NCBI GenBank assembly: GCA_965262015.1
Contig: OZ253494.1
Span: forward strand, 229,308 to 293,307
Source: Leptospiria bacterium
GTDB taxonomy: Bacteria; Spirochaetota; Leptospiria; Turneriellales; CBDBES01
Length of the DNA stretch: 64,000 nucleotides
Reading direction: 5' to 3'
Shown: positions 24,736-43,581 of the stretch, piece after piece
Layout of the letters: every line of letters starts with the position of its first letter
How positions within the stretch are numbered: the stretch's first letter is position 1
The notes under the pieces: generated by a model
Told to the model about the DNA's origin: nothing
What the model saw: the letters and a program-made list of their open reading frames with translations, nothing else
Database searches by the model: none
Translations under genes and position numbers: made by a program

Positions 24736-24909
24736 TTAGATTTTTGGATACTGAAGAATAAATATCTTGCATAATACAATCCTTACATACTGGATTTTGT
24801 GATTTGCAAAATTTTCTTCCTAAAAATATTAAATATAAAGGTAGGTCTTTCTAATATTTTTGTGGCAAGAAAGACATTAGATATTTTTTTATTGTTTCAG
24901 GGCTTGTCT
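24736..24909 (-). pseudogene. displaced 3'-terminal fragment of endonuclease III gene (nth); left direct repeat of the island
   Basis: ~174 bp aligning at roughly 90% identity to 42925-43103 (3' end of the intact nth). Encodes ..LMSFLPQKY*KDLPLYLIFLGRKFCKSQNPVCKDCIMQDI.. with TGG>TAG nonsense and no upstream nth body. Confidence 0.85.
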
Positions 24910-24938
24910 CATTTGTTCTTCCTATGAATATTTACTTA

Positions 24939-24971
24939 TTTAAAGAATAAGCAACAAGCTTATTCTTTAAA
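24939..24971. repeat. perfect 14-bp-stem inverted repeat at the inner edge of the left island junction
   Basis: tttaaagaataagc-aacaa-gcttattctttaaa; begins 30 bp inside the end of the nth homology. Confidence 0.7.
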
Positions 24972-25101
24972 CTAATTTTTCACTTCAAAATAGAACTTAC
25001 AAAAACTCAAAACACAGAGCTAATTAAAAGAAACAAAAAACTTATATTCAAGTTGATTAAAGGTTTATAAAATTAACAAGGGGTAATAGAAATAACTTAT
25101 C

Positions 25102-26967
25102 GTGAGTACTAAATTTTTTACTAATCAAAACAAAAACACCTTATTCAACAAACTCAAAGGTGTTTTTGACAATAATGAAAGTATCAATAACTTTGATGTT
25201 CTGGTAGATTATTTTCGCTTGTCGGGTTATTTTAAATTACGTCCATTTTTAGAGAATATTAACCATATTCGTATTCTGGTGGGTGTTGATGTTGATAGAA
25301 TCGCCCAAAAAATGCAGGCTGATGGCTTATCTCTATTTAAAGGTGATGATAAAAAAACGATTGAAGATTGGCAGGAAAAATTTATTGGTGATGTTAAAAA
25401 AGCCCGCTATGACGAGCAAACTGAGCAGGGCATCAAGCAATTTATTAAGGATGTACAAACAGGGAAAGTGCAAATCAAAGCACATCCAAGCCAGAACATT
25501 CACGCCAAAATATATATATTTCGCCCAGATGATTTTAACCCATATAAGTATGGTAGTGTGATTACTGGCTCATCAAACTTAACCGATGCAGGTATGAGAA
25601 CAAACACCAATCCTAATTATGAATTTAATGTGTTGTTAAATGACTATGAGGATATCCAATTTGCCACCAACGAGTTTGAAAAATTATGGCGGGAAGGTGT
25701 AGAGATATTACCTGAGGCAGCTGAGGTTAGCCTCAAAAAAACCTATTTAGCTGATAACATCACGCCCTATGAACTGTACTTAAAATGCCTGATTGAATAT
25801 TTTGGCACGGAGATTGAATTTGACCCTAACTCTATTAAAGATTTGCCCAGTGGCTTCATGCGTCTGTCCTATCAAATGGATGCCGTGAATGAAGGCTGGC
25901 AAATGCTAAACAAACATAATGGGTTTTTTCTTGCCGATGTGGTGGGTTTAGGTAAAACGATTATTGCCATTTTGATCGCACGCCAGTTTTATCGCTATAA
26001 CGGCTATCCTGATCATCGTTCTAAAATTTTATTGGTTATTCCGCCTGCACTCGAAAAAAACTGGGTCGATACTTTAGAACATTTCGACATTAAAGATGCC
26101 TTTGAGATTATTACCAATGGCAGTTTGCATAAAATCAAAGACCCTAAAAAGTACGACATGGTGATTGTTGATGAGGCACATAAGTTTCGCAACGATACCG
26201 CAGAAGCTTATACCCAGTTACAACTTATTTGCAAAACAAAAACTGTTGATGGCAAGGCTAAAAAAGTGATGTTGATTTCAGCCACACCACTAAATAATCA
26301 CCCTGGTGATTTATACAACCAAATTTTATTATTTCAGGACGGTAATAACTCCACCCTTGATTTTCCACTGGCTAGTTTTTTTACCAAAGCAAAAAAAGAA
26401 TATACAGACATCTCGAACCTACCCGATAAACATCAAGCTGGACAGAAAGCAGCAGAACTATATGAAGAAATTCGTGAAAAAGTGATTACCCCACTTATGG
26501 TGCGCCGAACCCGCACTGATTTATTAGAAAATGATCGCTATAAAAAAGATTTAACCAAACGGGGCATTGTATTCCCCAAAACAACCGCATCCCAACCAGT
26601 CTACGTCAAATTAGAAACACAACTGGAACAATTATACGATAGCACGATTAAAAAAATTAATAACAAAAAACAAGATGCTTCAGGATTATTACATGCTCGT
26701 TATCAAGTGTTGCATTATCTAAAGCCTGAATTCAAACAACAATACAAAAGAGCAGACCTGATTTCTAAGCAGTTAGTTGCTATTATGAAAACACTGTTAC
26801 TTAAAAGAATGGATAGCAGTTTTTATGCATTTAAGCAAACTCTAGATCGTTTTATAACATCCTCAAAAGTTATAATAAAAATGATTGAAGATAATAAAAT
26901 TATCATTGGATCAAACTTAGTTTACTACGTCATCCCCCCCCCCCCAAATGAGATAATAATTTTATGA
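25102..26967 (+). CDS. PLD-family nuclease domain fused to SNF2-family helicase N-lobe; 3'-truncated, likely non-functional
   Basis: HKD motif (NIHAKIYIF...GSSNLT), SNF2 motifs I (VVGLGKT), II (VIVDEAHKFRN), III (LISATPLNN). No helicase C-lobe (motifs IV-VI). ORF ends 20 nt after a C12 tract. GTG start. Confidence 0.8.
   Translation: MSTKFFTNQNKNTLFNKLKGVFDNNESINNFDVLVDYFRLSGYFKLRPFLENINHIRILVGVDVDRIAQKMQADGLSLFKGDDKKTIEDWQEKFIGDVKKARYDEQTEQGIKQFIKDVQTGKVQIKAHPSQNIHAKIYIFRPDDFNPYKYGSVITGSSNLTDAGMRTNTNPNYEFNVLLNDYEDIQFATNEFEKLWREGVEILPEAAEVSLKKTYLADNITPYELYLKCLIEYFGTEIEFDPNSIKDLPSGFMRLSYQMDAVNEGWQMLNKHNGFFLADVVGLGKTIIAILIARQFYRYNGYPDHRSKILLVIPPALEKNWVDTLEHFDIKDAFEIITNGSLHKIKDPKKYDMVIVDEAHKFRNDTAEAYTQLQLICKTKTVDGKAKKVMLISATPLNNHPGDLYNQILLFQDGNNSTLDFPLASFFTKAKKEYTDISNLPDKHQAGQKAAELYEEIREKVITPLMVRRTRTDLLENDRYKKDLTKRGIVFPKTTASQPVYVKLETQLEQLYDSTIKKINNKKQDASGLLHARYQVLHYLKPEFKQQYKRADLISKQLVAIMKTLLLKRMDSSFYAFKQTLDRFITSSKVIIKMIEDNKIIIGSNLVYYVIPPPPNEIIIL
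26934..26945. repeat. C12 homopolymer
   Basis: 12 consecutive C in an AT-rich genome, at the truncation point of the SNF2 ORF. Confidence 0.95.
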
Positions 26968-26996
26968 AGCTAGACGAAAACAACATAGAACAATCA

Positions 26997-27057
26997 TTTG
27001 TTATCACAGTTGGGGGAGTGGTGAACAGGGGTACAGTGTTAAAATAGATTATTATGA
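26997..27057 (+). repeat. ~60-bp direct repeat, copy 1 (gene-tail/leader unit ending in the ATG of the 2TM gene)
   Basis: tttgttatcacagttgggggagtggtgaacaggggtacagtgttaaaatagattattATGA. Reads as ..FVITVGGVVNRGTVLK* followed 8 nt later by ATG. Confidence 0.85.
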
Positions 27058-27611
27058 CAAGAACTCGTCGAAAAATTATTATTATTTTGTCCAGTATTAC
27101 GTTGTTGGTGGGGGTGGTTTGGGTAATTGATAAACCTAGCTATGGATCAATTACGTTTTGTCTTTCCTCTGCTGTGGTTTTATTTAGTTTTTGGTGGCCA
27201 CTACCAAGAAAAAAATATACTCAAAAGTGTCTTAAAGATATTATTTCTTTTAATTATAGTAATGATGACGGCAGGCACTCTATTGGTAATGATAATCTTT
27301 TATTTGAGACGGCGTGGTCTAAAGCAAGTGATACTTCAATTCATATATATAATGATCCACCATCCATAGACGGGATAGCTGTTGTAAGAAATAAACCAAA
27401 TATTTCAGATATTAGAGATGCCAGTACTTTTGACTTTTCTTCTCGTACAAGAACGCCAGAAGAGGGAGATATAGTTATTTTAAAAAATAAATATGGTAAC
27501 TATGCTGTCTTAAAAATAACGGATATTAAAGATAGTTCTAGATCTGATGAAGTCGATGAGGTTACTTTTGAGTATGTTATTAACCCAGATGGATATAGCG
27601 ATTTTAAATAA
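27054..27611 (+). CDS. small 2TM membrane protein with soluble C-terminal domain (hypothetical)
   Basis: Two hydrophobic helices (IIIILSSITLLVGVVWVI; ITFCLSSAVVLFSFWWPL), then a ~120-aa domain ending GDIVILKNKYGNYAVLKITDIKD..VTFEYVINPDG; no family recognised. Confidence 0.55.
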   Translation: MTRTRRKIIIILSSITLLVGVVWVIDKPSYGSITFCLSSAVVLFSFWWPLPRKKYTQKCLKDIISFNYSNDDGRHSIGNDNLLFETAWSKASDTSIHIYNDPPSIDGIAVVRNKPNISDIRDASTFDFSSRTRTPEEGDIVILKNKYGNYAVLKITDIKDSSRSDEVDEVTFEYVINPDGYSDFK

Positions 27612-27650: not shown

Positions 27651-27711
27651 TTTGTTGTCACAGTTGGGGAGTGGTGGAATAGGAGTACAGCGTTAAAATA
27701 GATTATTATGA
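27651..27711 (+). repeat. ~60-bp direct repeat, copy 2 (ending in the ATG of the PHP-ATPase gene)
   Basis: tttgttgtcacagttggggagtggtggaataggagtacagcgttaaaatagattattATGA. Reads as FVVTVGEWWNRSTALK*; relative to copy 1 two compensating 1-nt indels keep the frame. Confidence 0.85.
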
Positions 27712-30470
27712 AAAAAGAAACAAATAAACGAGGATCGGAATGGCGTAAATGGGATTTACATGTACATACTCCTGAATCGCATGGATATAGAGGAGATTGG
27801 GAAGAATTTAAAACACAATTACAAGATGCTGATTGTGCTGTTATTGGTGTGAATGATTATTTTTCTATTGCTGGATATAAAAAATTAAAAGAAGAAATAG
27901 AAAATAGCACTTTAGATATTGGGGATAAAGTTATTTTGCCAGTTGTCGAAATGAGGATGACTGATTCATTGCAGAAAAATACAACCACAAACAGTGCAAT
28001 TCATTTTAATTTTCATATCATTTTTAACGATATATTGAATGTTGAGGATATTGAAAGTTTCATAAAATCTTTAGAGTATGGAGATAGTAGCATTGGATCT
28101 GACTATTATGATAAAATAAAATTACAAGATACAAAGGTCTCATTTAAAGACACATTAAAAAAATTACAATCTGATAAAAAGTTTCAAAATAACTTTTTAA
28201 TTTGGCTCCCTTACGATGAATATGGAGGAATTAGTGAAATCAATCCTAATTCAGATAGTCGGATAAAAGGAGATTTTACAAAAAAGTCTCATATTCTTGG
28301 CTCATCAAATCAAAAACAAATAGATTTTTTTCTTTGGAAATCTGAATTGGAGGTAGATGGCACTCCAAAATTTAATCAAGAACAATTTAAAAAATGGCTT
28401 GAACATAAAAAAGCTTGTATTAAAGGGAGTGATTCCCATTGTCACAAATACCCAATTGGAAAGTTACGGGACAAGAATTCAAAACCAATTGAAAAATTTT
28501 GTTGGATAAAAGCAAATCCTACTTTTGAAGGGTTAAAACAAATTGTTTATGATCCAGAAGATAGAGTGAAAATTCAAGAATTAAAACCAGAAGAAAAAGA
28601 AGATTATCAAGTAATTGATAAGGTAAAATTTATAGACAATTCTTTTCCCCCTGATGAGATTTTAATAAGTCAAAATTTGACAACAATTATTGGTGGAAAA
28701 TCTACTGGTAAATCAATTCTACTAAGAAACATAGCACAAACGATTGATTTTACTGAAGTTTCAAACAGATTAAAAGAAGTTGGATTGCTAGAATATAAAA
28801 AAGAAGTTTCTAATTTTAATGTTATTTGGAAAGACAAACAAGAAAATGAAAGAAATGAAAGAAATGAAGATAATGGAGTAAACAAGAAAATCATTTATAT
28901 TCCACAATCATATTTGAATAGACTTGTTGATAAAAAAGAAGATAAGACTTCAATTGATGACATCATTAAAAATGTTCTTGAACAGGAAAAGGGTGTGAAA
29001 ACTGTATTTTCTCGCTTACAAGAGCAGAATAGGGATATAGAAAGAGATATTACACAAAGTATTGCAAATATTTTTTATAAAGAAAATGACATAAAAAAAT
29101 TAAGTAAAAGTATTAAAGAAATTGGAGATAAAAAAGGTATCGAATTAGAGATAAAAAAATTAGAGCAAGAAGTTTCCGGACTTGAGAAAAAGACAGGAAT
29201 GAGTGACAATGAAATAAAAAAATATAATAATCTTTTAGAAAAAATTGAAGATTTAAAAAATAATCAAGAAAAAGTAGAAAAGGATATGCAATCTCTTAAA
29301 GTTTTAAAATCTCAAAAAAACTTTGATGTATTTGCAGAAAATCAAAATATACTAGATTCTCTTGATTCGGATATTCAAAAAACCTTAAAAGATAGTTTAC
29401 ATACAGTTATAGAAGAAGCTGAAACAAAATGGAGAGAGCAAATAGAAGTTGAATATAAAAAATTAAAAAAACAAAAAACAGATAATCAAGATGAATTAAA
29501 AAAACAGTATAAATCCTTTAATCCTCTTTTAGAAAAATCTGAAAAATCAGAATCTTTCAAGGAAAAAATAGAAAAATTAAAAGAAGAAGATAAAAAACTG
29601 AAAGCTATAATTCGCCAAGAAGAGGAACATAGAACACTAAAAGATGAGTATATTGCCTTAATAGAAAACATTGCTAAAGATCACTCAAAGTTTTTTGATA
29701 ATTTTTTCAATGCAAAAACAGAAATTTTGAAACAAAGAAGTATTACAGAAGATCAGGATTTAGAATTTAGGATAGAGGTTGTATTTGAAAAGAAATCTTT
29801 TCAAGAGGAATGTATAAATAAAATGTGTGATCAAAGAAAATTAAATCAGTTTCAAGACGTTTCTTTGCAAGATTATAAATATAATAAAGCTGATTTTAAA
29901 AACGATATAGAAAAAATTATTAAAGGTATTTTAAGTGAAAAAGTAACCCTTGTAAACTCGTATTCAAAAAAAGAAGCAATTACGAGATTAGTCAAAAGTT
30001 GGTTTGTTTTTGATTACATAATTAAACAAAATGGAGACGAAATTTCTGAAATGTCTCCAGGAAAAAAATCTTTTGTTTTATTAAAACTTTTGATTGAGCT
30101 TGATACTAGTAAATGCCCAATTTTATTAGATCAGCCAGAAGATGATTTAGACAATCGTTCAATTTATTATGATTTAGTAAAATTTATAAAGACGAAGAAA
30201 AAAGAAAGGCAAATTATTATTGCAACCCATAACCCAAATTTAGTTGCTGGGGCTGACTCAGAATGTATAATCGTTGCAAATCAAGAAGGCAATAAAGCAA
30301 AAAATAAAACTTATAAATTTGAATACGTTCAAGGTGCTTTAGAAAATACTTTTTTAAATAAAGACTCTAAATGTGTTCTAGAACAGAGAGGAATTCAAGA
30401 ACATGTTTGTGATATTCTTGAAGGTGGTAAGACTGCTTTTGAAACAAGAAAGAAAAAATATAACATTTAG
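27708..30470 (+). CDS. PHP-domain phosphoesterase fused to SMC/ABC-type coiled-coil ATPase (Ppl/TrlF-like defence ATPase)
   Basis: N-terminal PHP motifs (WRKWDLHVHTPES, VIGVNDYF, VVEMR, KGSDSHC), Walker A IIGGKSTGKS, ~250-aa K/E-rich coiled coil, Walker B/D-loop PILLDQPEDDLDN, H-loop IIATHNPNL. Confidence 0.8.
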   Translation: MKKETNKRGSEWRKWDLHVHTPESHGYRGDWEEFKTQLQDADCAVIGVNDYFSIAGYKKLKEEIENSTLDIGDKVILPVVEMRMTDSLQKNTTTNSAIHFNFHIIFNDILNVEDIESFIKSLEYGDSSIGSDYYDKIKLQDTKVSFKDTLKKLQSDKKFQNNFLIWLPYDEYGGISEINPNSDSRIKGDFTKKSHILGSSNQKQIDFFLWKSELEVDGTPKFNQEQFKKWLEHKKACIKGSDSHCHKYPIGKLRDKNSKPIEKFCWIKANPTFEGLKQIVYDPEDRVKIQELKPEEKEDYQVIDKVKFIDNSFPPDEILISQNLTTIIGGKSTGKSILLRNIAQTIDFTEVSNRLKEVGLLEYKKEVSNFNVIWKDKQENERNERNEDNGVNKKIIYIPQSYLNRLVDKKEDKTSIDDIIKNVLEQEKGVKTVFSRLQEQNRDIERDITQSIANIFYKENDIKKLSKSIKEIGDKKGIELEIKKLEQEVSGLEKKTGMSDNEIKKYNNLLEKIEDLKNNQEKVEKDMQSLKVLKSQKNFDVFAENQNILDSLDSDIQKTLKDSLHTVIEEAETKWREQIEVEYKKLKKQKTDNQDELKKQYKSFNPLLEKSEKSESFKEKIEKLKEEDKKLKAIIRQEEEHRTLKDEYIALIENIAKDHSKFFDNFFNAKTEILKQRSITEDQDLEFRIEVVFEKKSFQEECINKMCDQRKLNQFQDVSLQDYKYNKADFKNDIEKIIKGILSEKVTLVNSYSKKEAITRLVKSWFVFDYIIKQNGDEISEMSPGKKSFVLLKLLIELDTSKCPILLDQPEDDLDNRSIYYDLVKFIKTKKKERQIIIATHNPNLVAGADSECIIVANQEGNKAKNKTYKFEYVQGALENTFLNKDSKCVLEQRGIQEHVCDILEGGKTAFETRKKKYNI

Positions 30471-30538
30471 GAAGAAAAAAATCAAGGTAATTCTCAAAAT
30501 GATACAATAACCGTTCATGCTATAATTTTTTATATAAT

Positions 30539-30737
30539 ATGAGCACAATTGAACTAATAGAAAACGAAAAAAGAGATATTTTAAAATGTATTGAAGCAGG
30601 GAAACCGTTGCCAGACAGATACCGTTTTTTGTTATTTGAAGACAAAAAAGAAGTTGAACTTGTTTGGAATGGTAAAACGCAGGAAGTAAACAAAATAATT
30701 TTACCTTTTCAAACAATTGAAGTAGTAGATGAACCAA
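30539..30737 (+). pseudogene. 5' fragment (about 66 codons) of a type III-like adenine DNA methyltransferase
   Basis: LLFEDKKEVELVWNGKTQEVNKIILPFQTIEVVDEPRA is the conserved N-terminus of Mod-type methylases as I recall it. The catalytic body is absent, and the fragment joins the type IIG tail copy at ~30738. Confidence 0.6.
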
Positions 30738-31245
30738 GGGCGGTATAAAATAAAATATGAAATGGCAGATGAATATATTGTTGGCGGGTTTAGGATCGAC
30801 ACAATTCAGTCAAATCAGGATAATAACTTTCTTATTTCTCAAGAAGTTACTGGAACCAATGATGTGAGAAGATTGCATTTTGCGGTGAAAGACAATAACA
30901 ATGAGCGGGTATTGTGGGGAGATTCAGTGAATAAGACTCTGCTTAAAAATCAAGGCGAAAACCACTATTTGCTGGCTCTGCTAAACGCTAAATTTATGGA
31001 TTGGTATTTCCGAATCACTTCATCCAACAATCATGTTCAAGGCTATGAAATAGAACAACTCCCCATCCCTAAAATATCAAAACCAGAACAACAGCCGTTT
31101 ATAGATTTAGTGGATAAAATTCTCACCACCAAACAACAGGGGCAAGACACCAGCACACTAGAAGCCCAAATAGATAAGATGGTTTATGAGCTTTATGACC
31201 TTACTGAGGATGAGATAAAAATTGTTGAGGGTGAGAAATGAGTAA
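30738..31245 (+). pseudogene. duplicated 3' ~0.5 kb of the type IIG R-M gene (TaqI-like C-terminal specificity region)
   Basis: 508-bp direct repeat of 37084-37591 (170 aa, roughly 90% identical to the C-terminus of the 1217-aa enzyme), including the overlapping ATGA junction to the next gene. Confidence 0.85.
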
Positions 31246-33661: not shown

Positions 33662-33675
33662 GAAAAGTGTGTTTC

Positions 33676-33782
33676 GTATAAATAAAACAGCGGTCAAGCA
33701 TATTGAAACCCAAATCGACCAGATGGTTTATAAACTTTATGACCTAACCGATGATGAGATAAAAGTTATTGAGGAGGGATAA
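33676..33782 (+). pseudogene. orphan R-M gene 3' tail remnant (copy B)
   Basis: Encodes ..AVKHIETQIDQMVYKLYDLTDDEIKVIEEG*. Near-identical in its 5' part to the remnant at 41028-41141. Confidence 0.75.
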
Positions 33783-33933
33783 TAGCAGAACTTGTAATTG
33801 TGATATCAAAAAATATGACGTTAATAGCCACATAGAAGACAATCCCAACAAGCAACAAAAATCTATAAATAAAAATCTAAAAATTATTATTTCACAATCT
33901 TATGTATAAATCATTAATAAATAGAACTAAATA

Positions 33934-36900
33934 ATGAGCCTATTACTATTAAAACAAACCTACAATCGAGATAATTACCTTGATTTTCTAGCGGACAAAT
34001 TTAAGTTTTCCAAGAATCTTGCCCCTATCAGCATAGAAAATAATGATGTTAAATTTTTTCAACGACTAGGCACAATCACCACCCATGATGATAAAGAACT
34101 TCCCGTCTTTGAAATTTATATCAAACCCAACACCCAATTAAGCAGAAATCGTGTGCAATTACGTAATTTAGTTGCTAAGCAAATCCAAACAGAAGACGGT
34201 GCCTTGGCGGTTTATATTGATGCGGATAACCAGCAATGGCGGTTTAGTTTTATTGCCATTGAATATAGCTTTTCCGCTGAAGGTATTAAAAAAGAGCAAA
34301 CAGCCAGCAAACGCTTTACTTACCTATTTGGCGAGAACACCAAAACCAGAACCGCAGAAGAAAGATTTAAAAAACTTAACAACCAATCCACCCTGCAAGA
34401 CCTAAAAGAAGATTTTGCCGTTGAAGCATTGAATAAAGAATTTTACGATAAACTTTATAGATGGTATGAAAAGGCACACAATCAAGTTACTTTCCCAAAT
34501 GATGAAAAAATGGAAAATCACATCCAAACCAGCCTGATTCGCCTTCTCACTCGCCTGCTATTCATATGGTTTATTAAAGAGAAAAAACTCATTAATCCTG
34601 ATTTATTTAACCAAGAGAAATTACAAAATCTGATTGATTACAACCAACCCAGCAGTTTTTATAAAGCGATATTACAAAACCTATTTTTTGCTACGCTCAA
34701 TGTTGAAATTAATAAACGTGATTTTAGAGATGAAGAAGATACTCAAGGTGCAAATAAAGACTACGGCAATCAATACCGTTATCGTTATCACGCTTTAGTA
34801 AAAAATAAGGGAAAATGGAAATCGTCCTTTACTGAAACACCTTTTTTAAATGGTGGTTTATTTGAAAGTTTGGATAAAAAATTAAATGAATTTGTATTAG
34901 ATGAAAATAATAATACTAAAAAAAATAGCTACGGTGATCAAATAATCAACCAAGAACATAAGAAACTTATTGATGATTGGAATGCAAATACTCGCCCAGA
35001 AAAAGCCATGATACGGATGGAGGGATTTTCCGAACACAAAAAGAACCCATTAAAAATTAGCAATCAGCTTTTTTTCAACAACGATGAAAATGATTTAGGC
35101 TTGATTGATTTATTTAATCAATACCAATTTACCGTCGAAGAAAGCACCTCTCTAGACATAGAAGTTGCCCTTGACCCCGAACTATTGGGCAAGGTGTTTG
35201 AAAACCTGCTTGCCAGTTCTAATCCAGAAACAGGACAACAGGCTCGCAAAGCCACTGGCAGTTTTTACACCCCACGAGAAATTGTTAATTACATGGTGGA
35301 TGAAAGCCTGAAAGCGTATTTTTATCAGCACACAGATCTAACAGACAAGCAGATCAATACCCTGTTTGATGAATCTGAATTCACCAAGCAAAAAAACACT
35401 TTGAGTAAGCAACAAACGATAACCCTGATCCACGCCATAGATAAGCTAAAAATTCTTGACCCAGCGGTGGGCAGTGGTGCTTATCCGATGGGGGTTTTAC
35501 AACGGCTGGTGCTAATTTTAGAAAAAGTGGATACAGAAAACACCCACTTCAAACAACAGCAAATCGACAAGGCACAACAAATCCCCGATGAAGCCAGTCG
35601 TACTAGTGCCATAGCGGCGATAGAGCAGGTTTTTTCACAACAAAACCAGCATAACGCTTATGGCAAGAAATTAATGCTAATCGAAAACTGCATTTATGGC
35701 GTGGACATCCAACCCATCGCCATTCAAATATGCAAACTACGCTTTTTTATCAGCTTAACCGTTGAGCAAACCCCCAACCAGGACAAAGCCGATAATTACA
35801 CCATCAAAGCCCTGCCTAATTTAGAAACCAAATTTATTGTTGCCAATAGCCTGTTGCCTTTGGGCGAGATGCCCACATATATGTTTAAGGGGAAAATAGA
35901 AGAACTACAACAACAATTAGCTAAAATACGGCATAAGCATTTTAGTGCCAAGACCTTAAAAACTAAACACGAATACCGCAACAAAGATAAGCAATTAAGA
36001 CAAGAGTTATCTCAATTACTGCGGGAAGATTATCAACAGAATTGCGTCTGGGCAGAGGCAATGAAAATTGTCGATACAAAGACAAATAAATTGATAAAAA
36101 ATAAAAAACATTACCAGAATAAAATAGATGGAGAAAAACAAAGAACGTTTTCATCGGATAATACAAACCGTGCTAGTGATAAAGAGCAACAGAATTGGCA
36201 AGATAAAATTATAGACTTAGAAGAAAATATTGCGTCAGAAAAAAAGATAATGCTACTCATATCCCACCATGATGAATCTCTAAAAAAGAAAAATATATGG
36301 GGAAAAGCTGAAACCACGGCAAAAGAAAACGCTGAAAAATTTTATGCCAGAGTGAGAAAAATCGCCAACTGGGATTTATATAATCAAAATGCTGTAGCTG
36401 ATTGGTTTCATCTTGAATGGCAATTTGGTGTTAAAAACGGCTTCGATATTGTTATTGGTAATCCACCTTATGCCCAAGTAAAAAGAAATGTCTATGCCAA
36501 AACTAACTTTCCTTATTCACAAGGAATAGACAAGGGCAAACAAAATCTTTACAAATTATTTGTAGAATTGTCCCATAATCTTTGCAAAAATAACGGCGTT
36601 GCCACAATGATTGTGCAAAGTAGTCTAATGGGCGACTTATCCTCTGCTGGAACACGGCAATTATTATTAGATAAAACACAACTCAAGCACATTATCGAGT
36701 TTCCAAAAATGGCAACATCAAGAGAAAGACAGGTATTTAACTCAGTTACACAAGGCACCTGTATTTATCAATTTATTAAACAATCCGTTGATAATTGCAC
36801 TATTGATATATCCATCAACAATGACAGTGAAAGTATTAAAAAACTAATTTTTTCACCCATTGAAAAGGCAACAATACATACACTTTATCCAAAATTTTTA

Positions 36901-37587
36901 TATTTCCCAAAAATTGCAACAGGCAACACCACTATTTTGCAAAAAATAGCTAATAACCCTTCAATCAAACCGCTTTCAGCCTTTATTCAATCAATGCAAC
37001 AGGGCGATATAAATTTAACCGCCCATTCATCTCAATTTTCCAATGAATTAACCTCTGTTAAACTGATGCGTGGTAGACATGTTGGGCAGTATACAATCAA
37101 ATATGAAATGGTAGATGAATATATTGTTGCAGGGTTTAAGACTGATAAAATCCAGCAAAATCAGGATAATAACTTTCTTATTTCTCAGCAAGTTACTGGG
37201 ACCAATGATGCCAGGAGATTGCATTTTGCGGTGAAAGATAATAACAATGAGCGGCTACTGTGGGGAAATTCAGTGAATAAAACTCTACTTAAAAACCAAA
37301 GTGAAAACCACTATTTTATGGCTCTGCTAAACGCTAAATTTATGGATTGGTATTTTCGAATCACTTCATCCAATAATCATGTTCAAGGCTATGAAATAGA
37401 ACAACTCCCCATCCCTAAAATATCAAAACCAGAACAACAGCCATTTATAGATTTAGTGGATAAAATTCTCACCGCCAAACAACATGGGCAAGACACCAGC
37501 ACACTAGAAACCGAAATAGATAAGATGGTTTACAAACTTTATGACCTCACTGAGGAGGAGATAAAAATTATTGAGGGTGAGAAATGA
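33934..37587 (+). CDS. type IIG restriction enzyme / gamma-class N6-adenine DNA methyltransferase fusion (Eco57I/PglX-like) with TaqI-like C-terminal specificity domain
   Basis: 1217 aa. Motifs GSFYTPREIVNYMV, SAM-binding ILDPAVGSGAY, catalytic IVIGNPPYAQV, C-terminal ..QVTGTND..GYEIEQLPIP..IDKMVYKLYDLTEEEIKIIEGEK. The N-terminal ~400 aa plausibly forms the nuclease/translocation part, but no catalytic motif was verified. Confidence 0.8.
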   Translation: MSLLLLKQTYNRDNYLDFLADKFKFSKNLAPISIENNDVKFFQRLGTITTHDDKELPVFEIYIKPNTQLSRNRVQLRNLVAKQIQTEDGALAVYIDADNQQWRFSFIAIEYSFSAEGIKKEQTASKRFTYLFGENTKTRTAEERFKKLNNQSTLQDLKEDFAVEALNKEFYDKLYRWYEKAHNQVTFPNDEKMENHIQTSLIRLLTRLLFIWFIKEKKLINPDLFNQEKLQNLIDYNQPSSFYKAILQNLFFATLNVEINKRDFRDEEDTQGANKDYGNQYRYRYHALVKNKGKWKSSFTETPFLNGGLFESLDKKLNEFVLDENNNTKKNSYGDQIINQEHKKLIDDWNANTRPEKAMIRMEGFSEHKKNPLKISNQLFFNNDENDLGLIDLFNQYQFTVEESTSLDIEVALDPELLGKVFENLLASSNPETGQQARKATGSFYTPREIVNYMVDESLKAYFYQHTDLTDKQINTLFDESEFTKQKNTLSKQQTITLIHAIDKLKILDPAVGSGAYPMGVLQRLVLILEKVDTENTHFKQQQIDKAQQIPDEASRTSAIAAIEQVFSQQNQHNAYGKKLMLIENCIYGVDIQPIAIQICKLRFFISLTVEQTPNQDKADNYTIKALPNLETKFIVANSLLPLGEMPTYMFKGKIEELQQQLAKIRHKHFSAKTLKTKHEYRNKDKQLRQELSQLLREDYQQNCVWAEAMKIVDTKTNKLIKNKKHYQNKIDGEKQRTFSSDNTNRASDKEQQNWQDKIIDLEENIASEKKIMLLISHHDESLKKKNIWGKAETTAKENAEKFYARVRKIANWDLYNQNAVADWFHLEWQFGVKNGFDIVIGNPPYAQVKRNVYAKTNFPYSQGIDKGKQNLYKLFVELSHNLCKNNGVATMIVQSSLMGDLSSAGTRQLLLDKTQLKHIIEFPKMATSRERQVFNSVTQGTCIYQFIKQSVDNCTIDISINNDSESIKKLIFSPIEKATIHTLYPKFLYFPKIATGNTTILQKIANNPSIKPLSAFIQSMQQGDINLTAHSSQFSNELTSVKLMRGRHVGQYTIKYEMVDEYIVAGFKTDKIQQNQDNNFLISQQVTGTNDARRLHFAVKDNNNERLLWGNSVNKTLLKNQSENHYFMALLNAKFMDWYFRITSSNNHVQGYEIEQLPIPKISKPEQQPFIDLVDKILTAKQHGQDTSTLETEIDKMVYKLYDLTEEEIKIIEGEK

Positions 37588-38036
37588 GTAAGCCCATTTA
37601 CACCATTATTGGTGGGGTCAATGGTTTGGGTAAAACGACTTTTGCACTCGATTATCTGGTGAACAATGTTGCTTGCAAGTATTTTATCAACGCCGACTTA
37701 ATTGCTGTTGGCTTGTCGCCCCTAGATTCAACTCAGCAATCAATAACCGCCAGTCGCCTGTTTTTACAACAAATTAAACAAGCCGTTATGCGTAAGAAAA
37801 ATTTTGCCTTTGAAACTACTTTATCGGGTAGAAGTTACTTGAAGCTCATTCGTCAATTACAGGCAGATGATTGGTTTGTTGAGCTGATTTATCTCTACTT
37901 GCCGAGCGTGCAATTATCTATTGAGCGAGTTGCAGAAAGAGTTAAGCATGGCGGGCATGATATTGCACTAACATCTATGGATAGAACTAGTTGCAACTAC
38001 GATTTGAGCCAACCGATGAGGCGTGCAAACTCGTAA
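37584..38036 (+). CDS. zeta-toxin-like P-loop kinase/ATPase (COG4185-type), C-terminus replaced by repeat sequence
   Basis: Walker A IIGGVNGLGKTTF. The start overlaps the R-M stop (ATGA). The last 21 aa (TSMDRTSCNYDLSQPMRRANS) come from the 93-bp repeat, so the native C-terminus is missing. Confidence 0.65.
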   Translation: MSKPIYTIIGGVNGLGKTTFALDYLVNNVACKYFINADLIAVGLSPLDSTQQSITASRLFLQQIKQAVMRKKNFAFETTLSGRSYLKLIRQLQADDWFVELIYLYLPSVQLSIERVAERVKHGGHDIALTSMDRTSCNYDLSQPMRRANS

Positions 38037-38061
38037 GATGAAATAAAAATCATTGAGGAGG
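37969..38061 (+). repeat. 93-bp perfect direct repeat, copy 1 (divergent R-M tail scar)
   Basis: 100% identical to 42261-42353; contains ..YDLSQPMRRANS* followed by DEIKIIEE. Confidence 0.9.
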
Positions 38062-38080
38062 CCGTAATGATAAAAAAATA

Positions 38081-38186
38081 AAACAACTTTTAGAAATAAA
38101 AAAACTGGAAACTATCTACCAGCAAAAAATAACTTATTTGGATGAGCTAAAAAAGAGCATACTACAAAAGCATTTAACGGAGAATT
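38081..38186 (+). pseudogene. C-terminal remnant of a type I R-M specificity subunit (hsdS)
   Basis: KQLLEIKKLETIYQQKITYLDELKKSILQKHL resembles the conserved C-terminal helix of HsdS (..LDELKKSLLQKAF..). No TRD is present. Confidence 0.5.
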
Positions 38187-40385
38187 ATGATAAAAAAAAT
38201 AAACATTAGTAACGTAGCGAGTTATAAAACTATAACTTCACTAGAAACTGATAAAAAGGTTAATCTAGTCTATGGGCTAAATGGCACGGGGAAAAGCATA
38301 TTTTCTAATTTTTTATATGATAGAAATGATAATAAATACTCAGGTTGTTCTATTGAAGGCATAACAGATGAAGAAAATATATCGGTTTATAATAAAAAAT
38401 TTATCGATGAGTTTTTCTATGTGCCTGATAATTTAGAAGGAATTTTTACGCTATCAAAGGAAAATAAAGAAGCAGAGCAGAAAATATTAGAAACGAAAAA
38501 AAAGAGAGATAAGTTAAATGAAAATAAAGAAGCTAAAGATAGTGAAATTAAGACAATAAACACAAGCATCGCTGAAAAGGAATCAACTTCTGAAAATAAA
38601 ACATGGGAAATTAAAATTAATTATTCTGGCGGGGATAGAGTGTTAGATTTTTGTTTAGATGGTTTGAAAAAAGAACAAAAGAAACTTTTTAACTATATTT
38701 TATCTATTCAGAAACCAACCACAGAACCCAGTAAAACAATAAAAGAACTTGAAAAAGATGTTCAATCTTTGCTCGGTAAGGATGCACAAAAATATTCCCC
38801 ATTGTCAATTATTCAATTTTTTCAACATACAATAGAAACAGACGCTATTTTTCAAAAGGAAATTATTGGTAATGAGAATAGCACTTTTGCAGATTTAATC
38901 AAAAAATTGAAAAATTCTGATTGGGTAAAAGAAGGGTTGGAATATTTGCCAAGTAAAATTGATAAAAATGGCAATCCTTGCCCTTTTTGCCAAAGCAATA
39001 CAATTACAAACACCGTTGCTTCGGATATAAAAAGCTACTTTGATGAATCTTATAAAAAAGATCAAGATACTCTAAGACAATTATTATCAGACTATGAGAC
39101 TGCTATAAAATCAATTATATCTATTGAAATATACAAAACAAATCCGTTTGTTCTAGAGCAGGTAACTGAGATTGAAAACAAATACAATCAAGTTATTGAA
39201 GTTTTGAAATCTAACAAGAGTAAAATAGAGAAAAAAATTGAAAACCCTAGTCAAAGATTTTCCATTGAGAACTCAACAAAAGAGATTGAAACTTTTAATC
39301 AATTTATTAGAGGTATCAATAAAACAATTGATGAATACAATAAAAAATTAGACAATAAACAAAACGAATTAGAGAATATAAAAAAAATATTTTGGGATAT
39401 TATGCGTTGGGATTATGACCAAATAATTTCATCGTATATCAAAGAGGAGCGTTCTTTTAAGGAAAAAAAATATTTGTTAGAAGAAGATGTAAGAATACTT
39501 AACGATGAGATTAAAAATCAAAATAATATCATTACACAAGAACAAAAAAAAACAACAAATATAGAAGATGCCATTGATAAGATAAATGGACGTTTAATAG
39601 ATTTAGGCATTGATAGTTTTATTATAAAAAAAGATGTAGATAAGAAGAATTTTTACAAAATAGTAAGAGGCAATTCAGCAGATAAATTAGAAACAAAAAT
39701 ATTCGAGACTCTAAGCGAGGGAGAAAAAATGATTATCACTTTTCTATACTTTGTTGAGTTATGCAAAGACAAAAAAATAAACTCTACGGAAACAGGGCGA
39801 AAAGAGATAATAGTAATTGATGACCCCATTTCTAGTTTATCGCATATCTACATATTTAATATTGGGCAGTTGATAAAAACAGAATTCCTAAATTCAAAGA
39901 ATTATAAACAAGTATTTTTACTAACACATAATTTATATTTTTTCTATGAGTTAACTGATATAAATCATGAACGTAGAGAGGCTAATCAAAAATTATTTCG
40001 ATTAGTTAAAAACTCTGATGGTAGTCATTTTGATGAAATGAGATATGAGGAAATTCAAAACGATTATCACGCTTATTGGCAGATTATAAAAAATGACGGG
40101 CAACCGCCTGCACTAATTGCAAACTGTATGAGAAATATTATTGAATACTTTTTTAATTTTATTGAAAAAGTGGATTTGAACGATGTTTTTCAAAAATCGG
40201 AATTGAAAGACAATAATAAATGTCAGGCTCTTTACAGATATATAAACAGAGAATCTCATTCTTCTGGTCAGAATATTTTTGATTCTAAAGAGTTCGATTA
40301 CAATTACTTCAAAGAGGCTTTTAGTTTGGTGTTTAAGAAAAATGGCTATGAAAAGCATTATAATAAAATGATAAAGATAAAATAG
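38187..40385 (+). CDS. RloC-like anticodon nuclease (AAA_13-type ATPase with coiled-coil zinc hook and PrrC-like C-terminal nuclease motif)
   Basis: Walker A VYGLNGTGKS, long coiled coil containing CPFCQ (CxxC hook), Walker B IIVIDDPISSLS, C-terminal R-x3-E...H pattern (CMRNIIEYFF...YINRESHS). Confidence 0.75.
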   Translation: MIKKINISNVASYKTITSLETDKKVNLVYGLNGTGKSIFSNFLYDRNDNKYSGCSIEGITDEENISVYNKKFIDEFFYVPDNLEGIFTLSKENKEAEQKILETKKKRDKLNENKEAKDSEIKTINTSIAEKESTSENKTWEIKINYSGGDRVLDFCLDGLKKEQKKLFNYILSIQKPTTEPSKTIKELEKDVQSLLGKDAQKYSPLSIIQFFQHTIETDAIFQKEIIGNENSTFADLIKKLKNSDWVKEGLEYLPSKIDKNGNPCPFCQSNTITNTVASDIKSYFDESYKKDQDTLRQLLSDYETAIKSIISIEIYKTNPFVLEQVTEIENKYNQVIEVLKSNKSKIEKKIENPSQRFSIENSTKEIETFNQFIRGINKTIDEYNKKLDNKQNELENIKKIFWDIMRWDYDQIISSYIKEERSFKEKKYLLEEDVRILNDEIKNQNNIITQEQKKTTNIEDAIDKINGRLIDLGIDSFIIKKDVDKKNFYKIVRGNSADKLETKIFETLSEGEKMIITFLYFVELCKDKKINSTETGRKEIIVIDDPISSLSHIYIFNIGQLIKTEFLNSKNYKQVFLLTHNLYFFYELTDINHERREANQKLFRLVKNSDGSHFDEMRYEEIQNDYHAYWQIIKNDGQPPALIANCMRNIIEYFFNFIEKVDLNDVFQKSELKDNNKCQALYRYINRESHSSGQNIFDSKEFDYNYFKEAFSLVFKKNGYEKHYNKMIKIK

Positions 40386-40482
40386 CCAAAGGAAAAACTC
40401 ATTGACATCTTGATAAAGAAAGATACAAGCCAAAAAATCAAAGTTTACTTATATCTTTGAGCAAAAAAACATAAAAAATAGC

Positions 40483-41027
40483 ATGATGAATGAAACCCAA
40501 ACCAGAGCAGAATTGATTGAGCCCAAGCTCAAAGCTAGCGGTTGGGGTGTTGTTGCTGGTGCCAAGATTTTGCGTGAGCATAAGATTACCGATGGTAGGA
40601 TACAGGTGGGCGGTAGTAGAGGCAAGGTATTAAAAGCCGATTATGTGCTAGTGTATAAGGGTATCAAACTAACAGTAGTGGAGGCGAAGAGGGCGAGCTT
40701 GGCAGTGAGCGAGGGTGTGCAGCAAGCAAAAAACTATGCCAAAAGATTAAATGCAGTGATTGCCTACGCTACCAACGGTAGTGAGATTTATAGTATCTGT
40801 ATGCAAATAGGCACAGAGGCTCTAGTGGAGGATTTTCTAAGCCCAGATAAAATGTGGAGCAAGGCATATCCTAAGGATATATCAAGTAAACAAGCCGAGT
40901 ATTGGCAAGACAAATTTACATGAGTACCTTTTGAGAATAAAAGCGACACCTTGCAACTGTGATACTATCAGGAGATTGCTATTAGAAATACTCTACAAGC
41001 TATAGTGCAAAGTAAAAAGCGTATTTT
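40483..41027 (+). pseudogene. 5' fragment of type I restriction enzyme R subunit (hsdR) with two in-frame TGA stops
   Basis: HSDR_N-type N-terminus (NETQTRAELIEPKLKASGWGV..KADYVLVY..VVEAKR). The frame continues past TGA 40921 and TGA 40960 into L*YYQEIAIRNTLQAIVQSKKRIL (helicase motif Q region) and then ends in tail remnant E. Confidence 0.8.
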
Positions 41028-41141
41028 GTATAAATAAATAAAACAGCGGTCAAGCATATTGAAATCCAAATAGATAAGATGGTTTATCAGCTTTACCGCC
41101 TCACGGCTGATGAAATAAAAATCATTGAGGGTGTAAAATAA
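41028..41141 (+). pseudogene. orphan R-M gene 3' tail remnant (copy E)
   Basis: ..AVKHIEIQIDKMVYQLYRLTADEIKIIEGVK*; shares gtataaataaa..aaacagcggtcaagcatattgaaa with copy B. Confidence 0.75.
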
Positions 41142-41236
41142 TTTTTGTTAGATTTGGACTTGACAGATTATAATCAAGCATAACCGTACAATCTTTAGCA
41201 CTAGGATTAGTTATCTACAATGGAGGAGAAACTTAA

Positions 41237-41707
41237 ATGAAATTGAGTGAATGGCTGGGAAAGCGGGGTATGACATCTCTCAAAATTAAAACCTCATTCT
41301 TGGAAATGGAGTTCAAGCCATCTGAACCAGATAAAAAAGCCGCTTGGGACATGTACATAGAGTTGCTTACTCGAATTACAACACAAGTGCTTGGTGATTA
41401 CGATGGAGACGAACAAACAGCATTAACCAGTATTTATTCTATATTCCCTACCACGCAATCTATAATTAAGGATAATGGCAGGGAGTGTATAGAGTTTACA
41501 AAACTTGCAATAGTTGTGTTGAACCAAATAGTGAGGCCATTTACAGCAAAATGGCACAAGATCTCCATTGAAACAGGTTTTAATGACTCTGATGTATGCA
41601 AGCAATTTAGGAATGAACTCCAAGACCTTCAAAAAGTATTAAATACCTACACAGTTATGTTAGCTGATATGGCTGGTGTTGAAGACCTGACCAATCTCGA
41701 GGAATAA
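41237..41707 (+). CDS. hypothetical all-helical protein (156 aa), partner of the TIR-like gene
   Basis: ORF ends 3 nt before the TIR gene start. No family recognised. Contains an R-x6-H string (RPFTAKWH) that could be HEPN-like; this is speculative. Confidence 0.55.
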   Translation: MKLSEWLGKRGMTSLKIKTSFLEMEFKPSEPDKKAAWDMYIELLTRITTQVLGDYDGDEQTALTSIYSIFPTTQSIIKDNGRECIEFTKLAIVVLNQIVRPFTAKWHKISIETGFNDSDVCKQFRNELQDLQKVLNTYTVMLADMAGVEDLTNLEE

Positions 41708-41710
41708 AAT

Positions 41711-42328
41711 ATGAAAAAAATCAGACACAAAGTATTCATAAGTTATCATCATGCTAATGACCAAAAATACAAGGAATATCTTTTACGGCTTAATGAACAT
41801 GGCGATATATTTATAGATGCTTCGGTAGATACTGGTGACGTAAACGAAGAATTATCTGATCAAGGTATACGTCGACTTATACGAGATGATTACTTGCGAG
41901 ACTCAACAGTAACCATTGTTCTTGTTGGAACTGAAACAAAGAATAGAAAACATGTTGATTGGGAAATATACTCAAGCATGTTTGATGGGACTGTAAACAA
42001 AAAATCCGGTGTGCTTGTTATTCAATTACCTACTACGAACTGCACAGAATGTATAGCTGCGCATGGAGATCATGAGAAAGCCATCATCTACCCCAATAGT
42101 AATTGGGTCAATATTGATACCAAAGCTGAATATGAGTCAAAGTATCCATATATGCCTGATAGAATAATTGATAATTTATTACAATCTGGAGCCAAGATTT
42201 CCATAACTAATTGGGATAAAGTCATTGATAATGTTAAAAATTTATGTTTTTTGATTGATGTAACATCTATGGATAGAACTAGTTGCAACTACGATTTGAG
42301 CCAACCGATGAGGCGTGCAAACTCGTAA
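41711..42328 (+). CDS. TIR-like domain protein, ThsB/DUF1863 type (C-terminal 21 aa derived from the 93-bp repeat)
   Basis: KVFISYHHANDQKY..DASVDTGD..SDQGIRRLIRDDYLRDSTVTIVLVGTETKNRKHVDWEIYSS parallels ThsB-type TIR (FxSxHxxD, xVxxVLIGxxTxxRxWVxxEI with the putative catalytic Glu). Confidence 0.75.
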   Translation: MKKIRHKVFISYHHANDQKYKEYLLRLNEHGDIFIDASVDTGDVNEELSDQGIRRLIRDDYLRDSTVTIVLVGTETKNRKHVDWEIYSSMFDGTVNKKSGVLVIQLPTTNCTECIAAHGDHEKAIIYPNSNWVNIDTKAEYESKYPYMPDRIIDNLLQSGAKISITNWDKVIDNVKNLCFLIDVTSMDRTSCNYDLSQPMRRANS

Positions 42329-42353
42329 GATGAAATAAAAATCATTGAGGAGG
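42261..42353 (+). repeat. 93-bp perfect direct repeat, copy 2
   Basis: Identical to 37969-38061; supplies the stop of the TIR ORF and ends 4 nt before the next ATG. Confidence 0.9.
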
Positions 42354-42357
42354 AATA

Positions 42358-42705
42358 ATGACAGAACTTGTAATTCTAGGTGTAGCAGAAATAGCTATCT
42401 TTGCACCGGTAATATTCTTGATTTATAAATACTTTGACAAGAAAAATAGAGAACAACAGCAAAGGGAATTTAAGTATTTTTATCAACTGGTAAAGGACTT
42501 AGTTGAACCAGAGAAGGGTCAAGACATGTATCTTGATCGACAAACAGCGATTATATTTGAATTAAGAAATTTCAAAAGATACCATGAATATTCACTCAGG
42601 ATGTTGAAAGGATTTCTCAAGGATGAACAACGATGGAAAAAAGATAGATATATCGAAGAAATTAAACTTACAATAAGTTTTATTGAAAAAAAAATCAGCG
42701 GATAA
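42358..42705 (+). CDS. small single-pass membrane protein (hypothetical, 115 aa)
   Basis: N-terminal TM helix LVILGVAEIAIFAPVIFLIY, then a charged helical domain. A degraded copy of its first ~20 nt also follows tail copy B at 33783. Confidence 0.5.
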   Translation: MTELVILGVAEIAIFAPVIFLIYKYFDKKNREQQQREFKYFYQLVKDLVEPEKGQDMYLDRQTAIIFELRNFKRYHEYSLRMLKGFLKDEQRWKKDRYIEEIKLTISFIEKKISG

Positions 42706-42727
42706 AAAAAATGATTAATCATCTAAT

Positions 42728-42924
42728 CTCACGAAATAAAAATCATTGAGAATATAAAATGAAACAAGCCGTTTGCACCATTATTGCTAAAATGGTGGAG
42801 GTAGAACAATTTTAGCACATGCTTATTAGGCGAAGAATATTGATTGCAAATGTTTTGTTAATGTCAATTTGATCGCTACTAGCTTGTTGCCTCTTAATCC
42901 AAATCAGCAAAAATAACTGCCAGT
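42728..42924 (+). pseudogene. R-M tail remnant (copy G) plus degraded 5' fragment of a second zeta-like P-loop gene
   Basis: ctcacgaaataaaaatcattgag..ATGA, then MKQAVCTII.. and FVNVNLIATSLLPLNPNQQ.. in shifted frames, paralleling MSKPIYTII..FINADLIAVGLSPLDSTQQ of the 37584 gene. Abuts the nth stop codon. Confidence 0.6.
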
Positions 42925-43581
42925 TTAGACTATATTTTGGGATGCTGAAGGACAAATATCTTGCATGATACAATCCTTACATACTGGATTTTGTGATTTA
43001 CAAAATTTTCTTCCTAAAAATATTAAGTATAAAGGTAGGTCTTTCCAATATTTTTTTGGCAAGAAAGACATGAGATCTTTTTCAATTGTTTCGGGGCTTG
43101 TCTTAGAGGTAAGGCCTAGACGTTGTGTTATACGACGAACATGTGTATCCACTACAATTCCTGGTGTTTTATTAAAAGCAACTGCCATTATAACATTGGC
43201 TGTTTTTCTACCAATTCCTGGTAGTTGAGTTAAAATACTAAAATCATCTGGTATTTTACCATTATATTCTTTAACTAGTATATTAGCTAATTTTTTTAAA
43301 TTGCGTGCTTTATTTTTGTAAAAACCAGTGGAATAGACAATTTCTTCCAGTCTAGAAAGGGTAATTTTGTCTAAAGTAAACATATCAGGACATTCAGTAA
43401 AAAGTAGTTTTGTCACTATATTTACACGGATATCTGTACATTGTGCAGATAAGATCACTGCCATAGATAATTGTTCTACACTATTGTGCTCTAGAGGGGG
43501 CTCTGCTTTACCAAAATAATTGTCTAGTCTGTTAAAGACGATGCCTAAGTAGGGTTCTTTACGATAATTCCTAGCAGTCAT
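42925..43581 (-). CDS. nth: endonuclease III (DNA glycosylase/AP lyase)
   Basis: HhH-GPD motif LPGIGRKTANVIM, VDTHV, C-terminal 4Fe-4S cluster CKSQNPVCKDCIMQDIC. Confidence 0.9.
   Translation of the reverse strand: MTARNYRKEPYLGIVFNRLDNYFGKAEPPLEHNSVEQLSMAVILSAQCTDIRVNIVTKLLFTECPDMFTLDKITLSRLEEIVYSTGFYKNKARNLKKLANILVKEYNGKIPDDFSILTQLPGIGRKTANVIMAVAFNKTPGIVVDTHVRRITQRLGLTSKTSPETIEKDLMSFLPKKYWKDLPLYLIFLGRKFCKSQNPVCKDCIMQDICPSASQNIV

Follow-up and report, generated by a model that had tools for sequence, protein, structure and literature searches.

A window of 64,000 nucleotides of a Leptospiria bacterium (GenBank assembly GCA_965262015.1, contig OZ253494.1, positions 229,308 to 293,307) was analysed, in which an island of about 18 kb made of defence-type genes and pseudogenes lies between a lipoprotein gene and nth, the gene of endonuclease III, and in which the last 179 nucleotides of nth recur at the far edge of this island. 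The best reading of the arrangement is an insertion into the 3' end of nth by DNA that carried a replacement for the end of the gene. It is quite probable that the left copy is the host's original gene end and the island an insertion. As for the way of entry, we tentatively favour, with somewhat less than even confidence, an old, immobilised integrative defence island of the type of e14 in icd, the site-specific integrase of which has since been lost; a route independent of any recombinase is almost as likely as the lost integrase. The original place of the left copy, the former integrase and the order of events are what we infer from the following observations.

The two copies of the gene end, and the gene itself, are located as follows.
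24731-24909, minus strand: displaced nth 3' end, a pseudogene fragment of 59 codons and stop, left copy of the repeat (blastn, codon table)
42925-43103, minus strand: right copy of the repeat, the functional 3' end of nth (last 59 codons and stop)
42925-43581, minus strand: intact nth, endonuclease III of 218 amino acids (Pfam HhH-GPD, HHH)

These copies form a direct repeat which aligns over 179 nt without gaps, 162 of the 179 positions being identical (90.5%, 17 differences; blastn E about 1e-62 to 1e-66). They have the same orientation and are 18,194 nt apart from start to start. In both of them the homology starts at the TAA stop codon (24731 and 42925, read on the minus strand), and the adjoining sequences are unrelated on all four sides. 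In the same frame the left copy is translated to ..TSPETIKKYLMSFLPQKY*KDLPLYLIFLGRKFCKSQNPVCKDCIMQDIYSSVSKNLM*, which is the C-terminus of Nth (78% amino acid identity in tblastn), and tblastn with Nth detected neither nth homology past about 24925 nor any further nth fragment in the window. What stands at 24731-24909 is a genuine C-terminal piece of nth that has been displaced. The preliminary description of this DNA, made from the letters and open reading frames (ORFs), had recognized a direct repeat of about 175 bp with roughly 90% identity and had begun its left copy 5 nt too late, at 24736; the repeat itself, the homology of the left copy to nth, the lack of a gene body and the TGG>TAG change in it were all borne out. 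The intact nth keeps the GRKTAN and VDTH motifs with the catalytic Lys and Asp together with all four iron-sulphur (Fe-S) cysteines, and its composition is host-like (z = 0 in a length-matched trinucleotide score). Between the lipoprotein gene and the displaced end of nth, the heptamer GTTAGCC is present in about three tandem repeats (24661-24684).

The left copy carries W179* (TGG>TAG), C210Y, which removes an Fe-S cysteine, E167K, D169Y and P211S, all of them at positions that are invariant or near-invariant among 119 Nth homologs. The differing codons of the two copies comprise 6 synonymous and 10 non-synonymous ones, and at least five of the ten non-synonymous changes of the left copy strike such (near-)invariant residues. 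Changes at invariant positions in a copy without gene body are expected of a displaced gene end which is freed from selection. Because of the non-synonymous excess and the nature of the altered positions, much of the 9.5% divergence is probably due to decay after the displacement, and a strongly divergent foreign allele does not appear to be required. The proposal that a divergence of about 10% implies a foreign allele is accordingly weak, given the 6:10 ratio of synonymous to non-synonymous codons and the at least five changes at (near-)invariant positions. Two other features of the differences were considered and abandoned. Their clustering in 'arms' around a conserved core was marginal in a scan statistic (P 0.04-0.14) and was not used, and the synonymous-only centre was dropped as a proof of divergence between functional alleles, since the homolog alignment shows that the centre is not especially constrained; in this alignment the arms of the left copy hold the changes at invariant sites.

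The state of the left copy also bears on whether the arrangement exists at all. The sequence is a metagenome-type assembly with a contig of 1.92 Mb, and a divergence of 9.5% is within the range of strains or species, so the contig might have been mis-joined at the repeat, with nth ends from different strains or genomes. We consider such an artefact very improbable: with its stop codon and lost Fe-S ligand the left copy is a pseudogene and not a strain allele, the unique flanks of both copies run into long housekeeping regions of matching composition, and the repeats are far too diverged to collapse during assembly.

The geometry, namely a gene end repeated in direct orientation at both edges of foreign DNA, an intact gene on one side, a copy without gene body beside an unrelated core gene on the other and homology beginning at the stop codon, argues for a single reciprocal crossover with DNA carrying an nth 3' end. 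According to this model the crossover would have taken place within the last 179 bp of nth and brought in foreign DNA with its own nth 3' end up to the stop codon; nth would have been kept intact, with the incoming end as the right copy, while the original end of the host would have been moved 18 kb away, beside the convergent lipoprotein gene, where it could decay into the left copy. The most likely agent would be a site-specific recombinase encoded by the element and deleted later, this deletion having its right-hand limit at the nth stop codon, at which a zeta-like gene breaks off. In a later phase of rebuilding, defence modules would have been added, duplicated and truncated via short gene-end sequences, chiefly a 21-nt linker consisting of the C-terminus of restriction-modification (R-M) genes and a ribosome-binding site (RBS). 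The insertion event is old, an age that agrees with the number of pseudogenes and with the lost mobility genes.

An arrangement of this kind is known from E. coli, where, according to the passages on the subject in PMC13626634 and PMC6379469 (citing Hill et al. 1989), e14 and phage 21 occupy the 3' end of icd as inserts that bring a replacement gene end. Measured in the same way in E. coli K-12, the e14/icd repeat has 216 nt with 87% identity, includes 165 coding nt with 12 differences and flanks 15.2 kb; the nth locus comes very near to it in size and identity. In both loci a housekeeping gene has its end in two directly repeated copies around an insert of 15-18 kb, the gene-proximal copy keeps the gene intact, the displaced copy (icdC in e14) stands at the far end, and there is defence cargo, which is lit and mcrA in e14. 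The differences should also be emphasized. Besides the target gene and the phylum, e14 has intE, xisE and phage remnants, whereas genes of neither kind, recombinase or phage, occur in the nth island; the frame of icdC remains open and its codon changes are 9 synonymous and 2 conservative ones, in contrast to the 6 and 10 of the much more decayed nth fragment (Fisher P = 0.047); and the homology at icd extends 51 nt beyond the stop codon, whereas that of the nth repeat ends at the stop.

Several results weigh against an integrase-mediated insertion. Neither integrase, excisionase and transposase genes nor phage, replication and conjugation genes were found in the island or within 15 kb on each side. 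No island gene matched a recombinase in Pfam, PHROG or NCBIfam, and recombinase remnants were missing from the 34 six-frame fragments that cover all intergenic DNA (best Pfam E 0.019), so the initial statement that no integrase or recombinase is present now extends to remnants in the island genes, the intergenic fragments and the 15-kb flanks. No report of nth as an attachment site was found in the literature searched. No empty or second occupied site was found, since no close relative is present in any collection searched, and the 167 nth loci of other taxa showed no displaced nth end, the available flank of up to 10 kb leaving an 18-kb insert out of range. Furthermore, at least three other blocks in the island are bracketed by direct repeats (508, 93 and 64 nt) that cannot be integrase attachment sites; general recombination at the locus can therefore give the same signature without an integrase.

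A phage or plasmid origin was considered and rejected: the 18-kb island had no megablast match in plasmid or phage records, the AAA_13 and R-M genes had no relatives in viral contigs, and neither the 21-nt linker nor the 93-nt segment was found in viral contigs. A tRNA or other RNA as the real attachment site was rejected, the sole RNA gene being tRNA-Gln at a distance of 5 kb. As regards integrative mobile elements exploiting Xer recombination (IMEX), which enter at the chromosomal dif site near the replication terminus, the cumulative GC skew climbs monotonically over the window with no terminus-like switch, no explicit dif search having been made.

The 18,015 bp between the nth copies contain twelve sizeable ORFs, all on the plus strand. 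Island genes were searched with Pfam, PADLOC, PHROGs and NCBIfam, and the following features were identified.
24939-24971, plus strand: perfect hairpin with a 14-bp stem, then a T-run (-15 kcal/mol, z = -6.1 against shuffles)
25102-26967, plus strand: PLD(HKD)-SNF2 helicase anti-phage gene, pseudogene (Pfam PLDc_2, SNF2-rel_dom, ResIII)
27054-27611, plus strand: ORF185, small predicted membrane protein, no family match (Pfam, PADLOC, NCBIfam, PHROGs)
27708-30470, plus strand: full-length TrlF-family AAA-like ATPase with PHP-like N-terminus, related to the Ppl anti-phage protein
30729-31241, plus strand: C-terminal remnant of a second type IIG R-M/methyltransferase gene (Pfam TaqI_C)
31238-33586, plus strand: TPR protein with 17 tandem 102-nt (34-aa) repeats and a C-terminal membrane segment
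33663-33799, plus strand: another R-M 3'-end remnant and the mutated start of an ORF115-like gene
33934-37587, plus strand: intact-looking type IIG R-M enzyme of the Eco57I family, 1217 aa (Pfam Eco57I, N6_Mtase, TaqI_C)
37584-38036, plus strand: truncated zeta-toxin/AAA_33-like kinase gene (Pfam), translationally coupled to the R-M gene
38090-41028, plus strand: type I R-M operon wreck with an embedded PrrC/RloC-like ATPase
38090-38176, plus strand: HsdS C-terminal remnant, within the type I R-M wreck
38187-40385, plus strand: intact AAA_13/PDC-S06 gene (Pfam AAA_13 E = 2e-113; PADLOC PDC-S06 823 bits)
40483 to about 41028, plus strand: HsdR N-terminal fragment (Pfam HSDR_N)
41015-41139, plus strand: further R-M 3'-end remnant including linker copy 5
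41237-42328, plus strand: ORF156, then a ThsB-like TIR protein (Pfam ThsB_TIR E = 4e-22; PADLOC ThsB/PDC-M50B)
42358-42705, plus strand: ORF115, no family match (Pfam, PADLOC, NCBIfam, PHROGs)
42730-42924, plus strand: linker copy 7 and the degraded start of a second zeta-like gene, 70% identical to 37558-37754
31209-31229, 33753-33773, 37555-37575, 38037-38057, 41109-41129, 42329-42349 and 42730-42750, plus strand: the seven copies of the 21-nt linker motif

Judged from these profile searches, the island ORFs appear to be defence-type genes or wrecks of such genes throughout, and the accessory content described at first (R-M, ATPases, TIR, pseudogenes) was recovered. The PLD-SNF2 gene is truncated to about 57-65% of the family length: it covers positions 27-539 of 948 in the PADLOC HKD+Snf2 profile and 1-616 of 1087 in PHROG 26785, and scores well under the cut-off of NCBIfam phospholipD_antiphage. 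The TrlF-family gene reaches 536 bits with NCBIfam NF045780 (cut-off 350) over positions 1-944 of 944 and is named Ppl by PADLOC, while the type IIG R-M gene is recognized as REase_MTase_IIG by PADLOC with E = 1e-54. In the ThsB-like TIR protein the family alignment ends at residue 176 of 205, and PHROG 13658 covers residues 5-176. An open frame of 81 codons (30503-30745) stands directly 5' of the R-M C-terminal remnant; its presumed likeness to the N-terminus of a DNA methyltransferase received no support from Pfam, NCBIfam, PHROGs or PDB sequences; were the likeness real, frame and remnant together would represent a methyltransferase gene with an internal deletion. The start of the TPR gene, the repeats of which are 76-87% identical, overlaps the stop codon of this remnant. 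The next remnant (33663-33799) is 81% identical to 41015-41130 and 87% to 42329-42375, and the start of the second zeta-like gene contains a frameshift and a stop and is cut exactly where the nth stop codon begins. The hairpin, the only long-stem terminator-like site of the island, lies 30 nt within its left edge and 5' of the first island gene; speculatively, it could have been the terminator of the plus-strand gene array if the element was once circular.

Every repeat of the 64-kb window falls within the island, which is not one element but a mosaic in which at least four blocks, nested or serial, have direct repeats at their edges. A 508-nt repeat (30738-31245 and 37084-37591, 91%), consisting of R-M C-terminus, brackets 5.8 kb. 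A 93-nt segment (37969-38061 and 42261-42353), the copies of which are 100% identical, brackets a block of 4.2 kb and gives the zeta-like kinase and the ThsB-like TIR protein the same 21-aa C-terminus (TSMDRTSCNYDLSQPMRRANS), stop and linker; its fold is no better than that of shuffles (z = -1.7). The perfect identity of these two copies stands out in an island that is otherwise old. ORF185 (0.6 kb) is bracketed by a 64-nt direct repeat (26997-27060 and 27651-27714, 89%), which holds a 5' leader with ATG that is used also by the TrlF-family gene; it looks as though ORF185 was inserted with duplication of the leader.

The most original detail of the locus is the recurring R-M-end linker. The 21-nt motif GAKGARATAAAARTYRTTGAG is the coding end of TaqI_C-type R-M genes (..EEIKIIEG.. 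C-terminus) and continues into the RBS and ATG of the following gene. All of its seven copies are on the plus strand, within the island and at module boundaries, against 0.02 copies expected by chance, and three of them are identical 22-mers. A type I R-M fragment that is shared with the metagenomic contig L171, described below, starts no more than about 15-30 nt from one copy of the linker, and its end coincides with the start of an R-M-end remnant that contains another copy. To judge by these junctions, the locus has evidently been rebuilt many times by recombination at short conserved gene-end sequences. From the preliminary view of a single integrative element with a replacement end, the insertion geometry is retained as the best reading; the island is, however, a mosaic of at least four blocks and not a single element, and its integrase is conjectural.

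The mosaic bears directly on the possibility that no recombinase of an element was ever involved. DNA of a sister strain, in which the island already abutted the nth stop codon, might have been integrated by host recombination, either by a single, RecA-mediated crossover with a circularised fragment on which the nth end was present, or by homology-facilitated illegitimate recombination with its anchor in nth and the illegitimate join at 24909|24910; the left copy would still be the host's end, and the same process would have made the other direct-repeat-flanked blocks of the island. Such an entry has a substantial share of the probability, if well below even. It is in agreement with the lack of a recombinase or remnant anywhere, with an island consisting solely of defence genes and zero mobility genes, with a heterogeneous composition that implies many separate acquisitions, and with four further blocks of like structure (508 nt around 5.8 kb, 93 nt around 4.2 kb, 64 nt around 0.6 kb, and the linker copies around the type I fragment). 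It needs, however, a donor whose nth is about 90-95% identical, and no such donor is known; moreover, the end of the homology at the stop codon demands an extra assumption on the donor, whereas the e14-type model predicts it directly. In homology-facilitated illegitimate recombination the anchor is more rarely duplicated by the join than deleted, and this counts against the recombinase-independent insertion.

The same thought can be extended to the building of the whole island. Blocks could dock by single-crossover or homology-facilitated recombination at gene ends and leave duplicated ends behind, a general scheme to which we give little credence. In such docking the nth 3' end may be the outer boundary, and the portable 21-nt linker inside may also couple the incoming gene translationally to the previous one; the nth duplication may then be the outermost case of general cassette docking instead of an integrase scar.

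Composition supports a foreign and uneven origin of the island. The tetranucleotide distance to the flank profile is 0.30 for the island and 0.167 +/- 0.018 for the flanks (3-kb windows, Mann-Whitney P = 2e-6). By the length-matched trinucleotide score the modules deviate with z values of 12.6 (TrlF), 8.8 (AAA_13), 7.9 (R-M) and 6.2 (TPR), and of about 4 for PLD-SNF2, zeta and the hsdR fragment; both measures mark the island as foreign. The TrlF-family gene has the most deviant composition of the island with a GC content of 0.27, and the modules span 0.27 to 0.43; this spread suggests several sources. The small right-hand ORFs of the island, nth and tilS are like the flanks in composition.

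One module has a counterpart in an unrelated genome. L171, a circular metagenomic contig of 2.13 Mb from this genome, contains a complete type I R-M operon with hsdM, hsdS, AAA_13 and hsdR intact. The island region 38093-40372 is 85.7% identical to it in DNA over 2294 nt and the hsdR fragment 77.6% over 389 nt, the matched regions of L171 being 9906-12171 and 15117-15502. The core proteins of the window are much farther from their nearest known relatives (TilS 40%, Prs 61-64% and Nth 65% identical), and not one of the nearest relatives of Nth or TilS comes from the L171 contig. Since the DNA identity of 85.7% stands against core proteins only 40-65% identical, at least the AAA_13 module was acquired horizontally, and the transfer of the HsdS-AAA_13-HsdR unit looks fairly recent. 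The island order matches that of L171, as known for type I R-M operons with a PrrC/RloC-type AAA_13: AAA_13 overlaps the end of the hsdS remnant and is followed by hsdR. The difference is that the island has only the HsdS C-terminal remnant and the HsdR N-terminal fragment and no hsdM; therefore no type I R-M action is expected of the module. In L171 four additional cargo genes (M78 peptidase, DUF4411/PIN, Fic and a small ORF) stand between AAA_13 and hsdR, and the comparison looks like variable cargo within type I R-M operons.

The search for related loci remained at a distance. The best Nth relatives are 50% identical in GTDB genomes, 55% in JGI metagenome contigs and 65-72% in a collection of 5.8 billion proteins, and exact-protein look-ups of the nth product and the lipoprotein returned no record. 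No synteny at nth was seen in the nth loci of five relatives or the tilS loci of three relatives, a result that has no bearing on an empty site. Two contigs of one metagenome, L085 and L086 (positions 10001-10886 onward), encode identical Nth proteins with 63% identity to that of the window; their DNA agrees at 99.3% as far as 88 bp beyond the nth stop codon, and then they continue in unrelated, highly repetitive DNA, and neither of them has an nth-end duplication. The region downstream of nth varies between strains in the lineage of L085 and L086 too.

This variability fits still another explanation, in which nothing was inserted into nth: a variable defence region might already have been situated between the lipoprotein gene and nth, and the 179-bp fragment might have been copied to its far edge by segmental duplication or a gene-conversion-like event, in the course of the turnover by which R-M and zeta gene fragments were scattered. 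In one relative the region downstream of nth is indeed strain-variable without nth-end duplication (L085 against L086), the locus does duplicate gene fragments (R-M C-termini about five times, zeta starts twice, the 93-nt segment twice), and the right-hand 2.5 kb of the island are compositionally host-like. We regard such a local rearrangement as unlikely, because the fragment lies at the outermost edge of the foreign DNA, in nth orientation and from the exact stop codon, and the adjacent 24566-24730 matches nothing elsewhere in the island; a geometry resembling attL and attR is not expected of random duplication.

Insertion at the end of nth also agrees with the surroundings, since housekeeping genes extend for at least 15 kb on each side of the island, as the first inspection of core genes in the flanks had indicated. 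On the left there are carB, citrate synthase, pfkB and two flaB genes, and the lipoprotein gene adjoins the left nth copy; on the right nth-tilS-pth-L25-prs is followed by tRNA-Gln, EF-Tu and ribosomal proteins. With a spacer of 9 nt after tilS (43582-43590), nth is the last gene of the prs-L25-pth-tilS operon. In three relatives (L168, L169 and L170) this operon stops at tilS and has a different neighbour in each. Within the group, synteny breaks off where the prs-L25-pth-tilS operon ends.

Compared with other known systems, the locus has the marks of a defence island or grounded prophage, conceived as hotspots of defence-gene turnover (PMC6379469): type IIG R-M, TrlF/Ppl-like ATPase, PDC-S06 AAA_13, ThsB-like TIR, HKD-SNF2 and type I R-M remnants are clustered, the recombinase is lost and internal rearrangements are many. 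The difference from other defence islands is that the turnover junctions are unusually regular, with the 21-nt motif and duplicated gene ends bracketing the blocks. A Thoeris system is not present, as the ThsB-like TIR protein is accompanied by no ThsA-type domain (the effector has SIR2, or TM with SLOG/Macro) in the island genes and its C-terminus is replaced by the 93-nt segment. The locus is not an integron either: it has no integrase, and the 21-nt motif is the coding end of R-M genes with an RBS and not a folded attC.

If the insertion reading is true, nth is to be added to the few protein-coding genes known to receive, at their 3' end, foreign DNA that brings a replacement end with it; it would be a target gene not previously reported, in a poorly sampled spirochaete lineage. 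It should be emphasized that the arrangement itself is already known from E. coli e14 and current concepts are unchanged; what the locus shows is such an island long after the loss of mobility. A recombination between the nth copies would introduce C210Y into nth if it took place anywhere to the right of about 24759, and the stop codon too if it took place farther to the right. Because the decayed end would thus be transferred to nth, the island may be effectively locked in, provided that nth is needed. A small lead on the swapping of defence genes within islands is offered by the R-M-end linker, which recurs at seven module boundaries.

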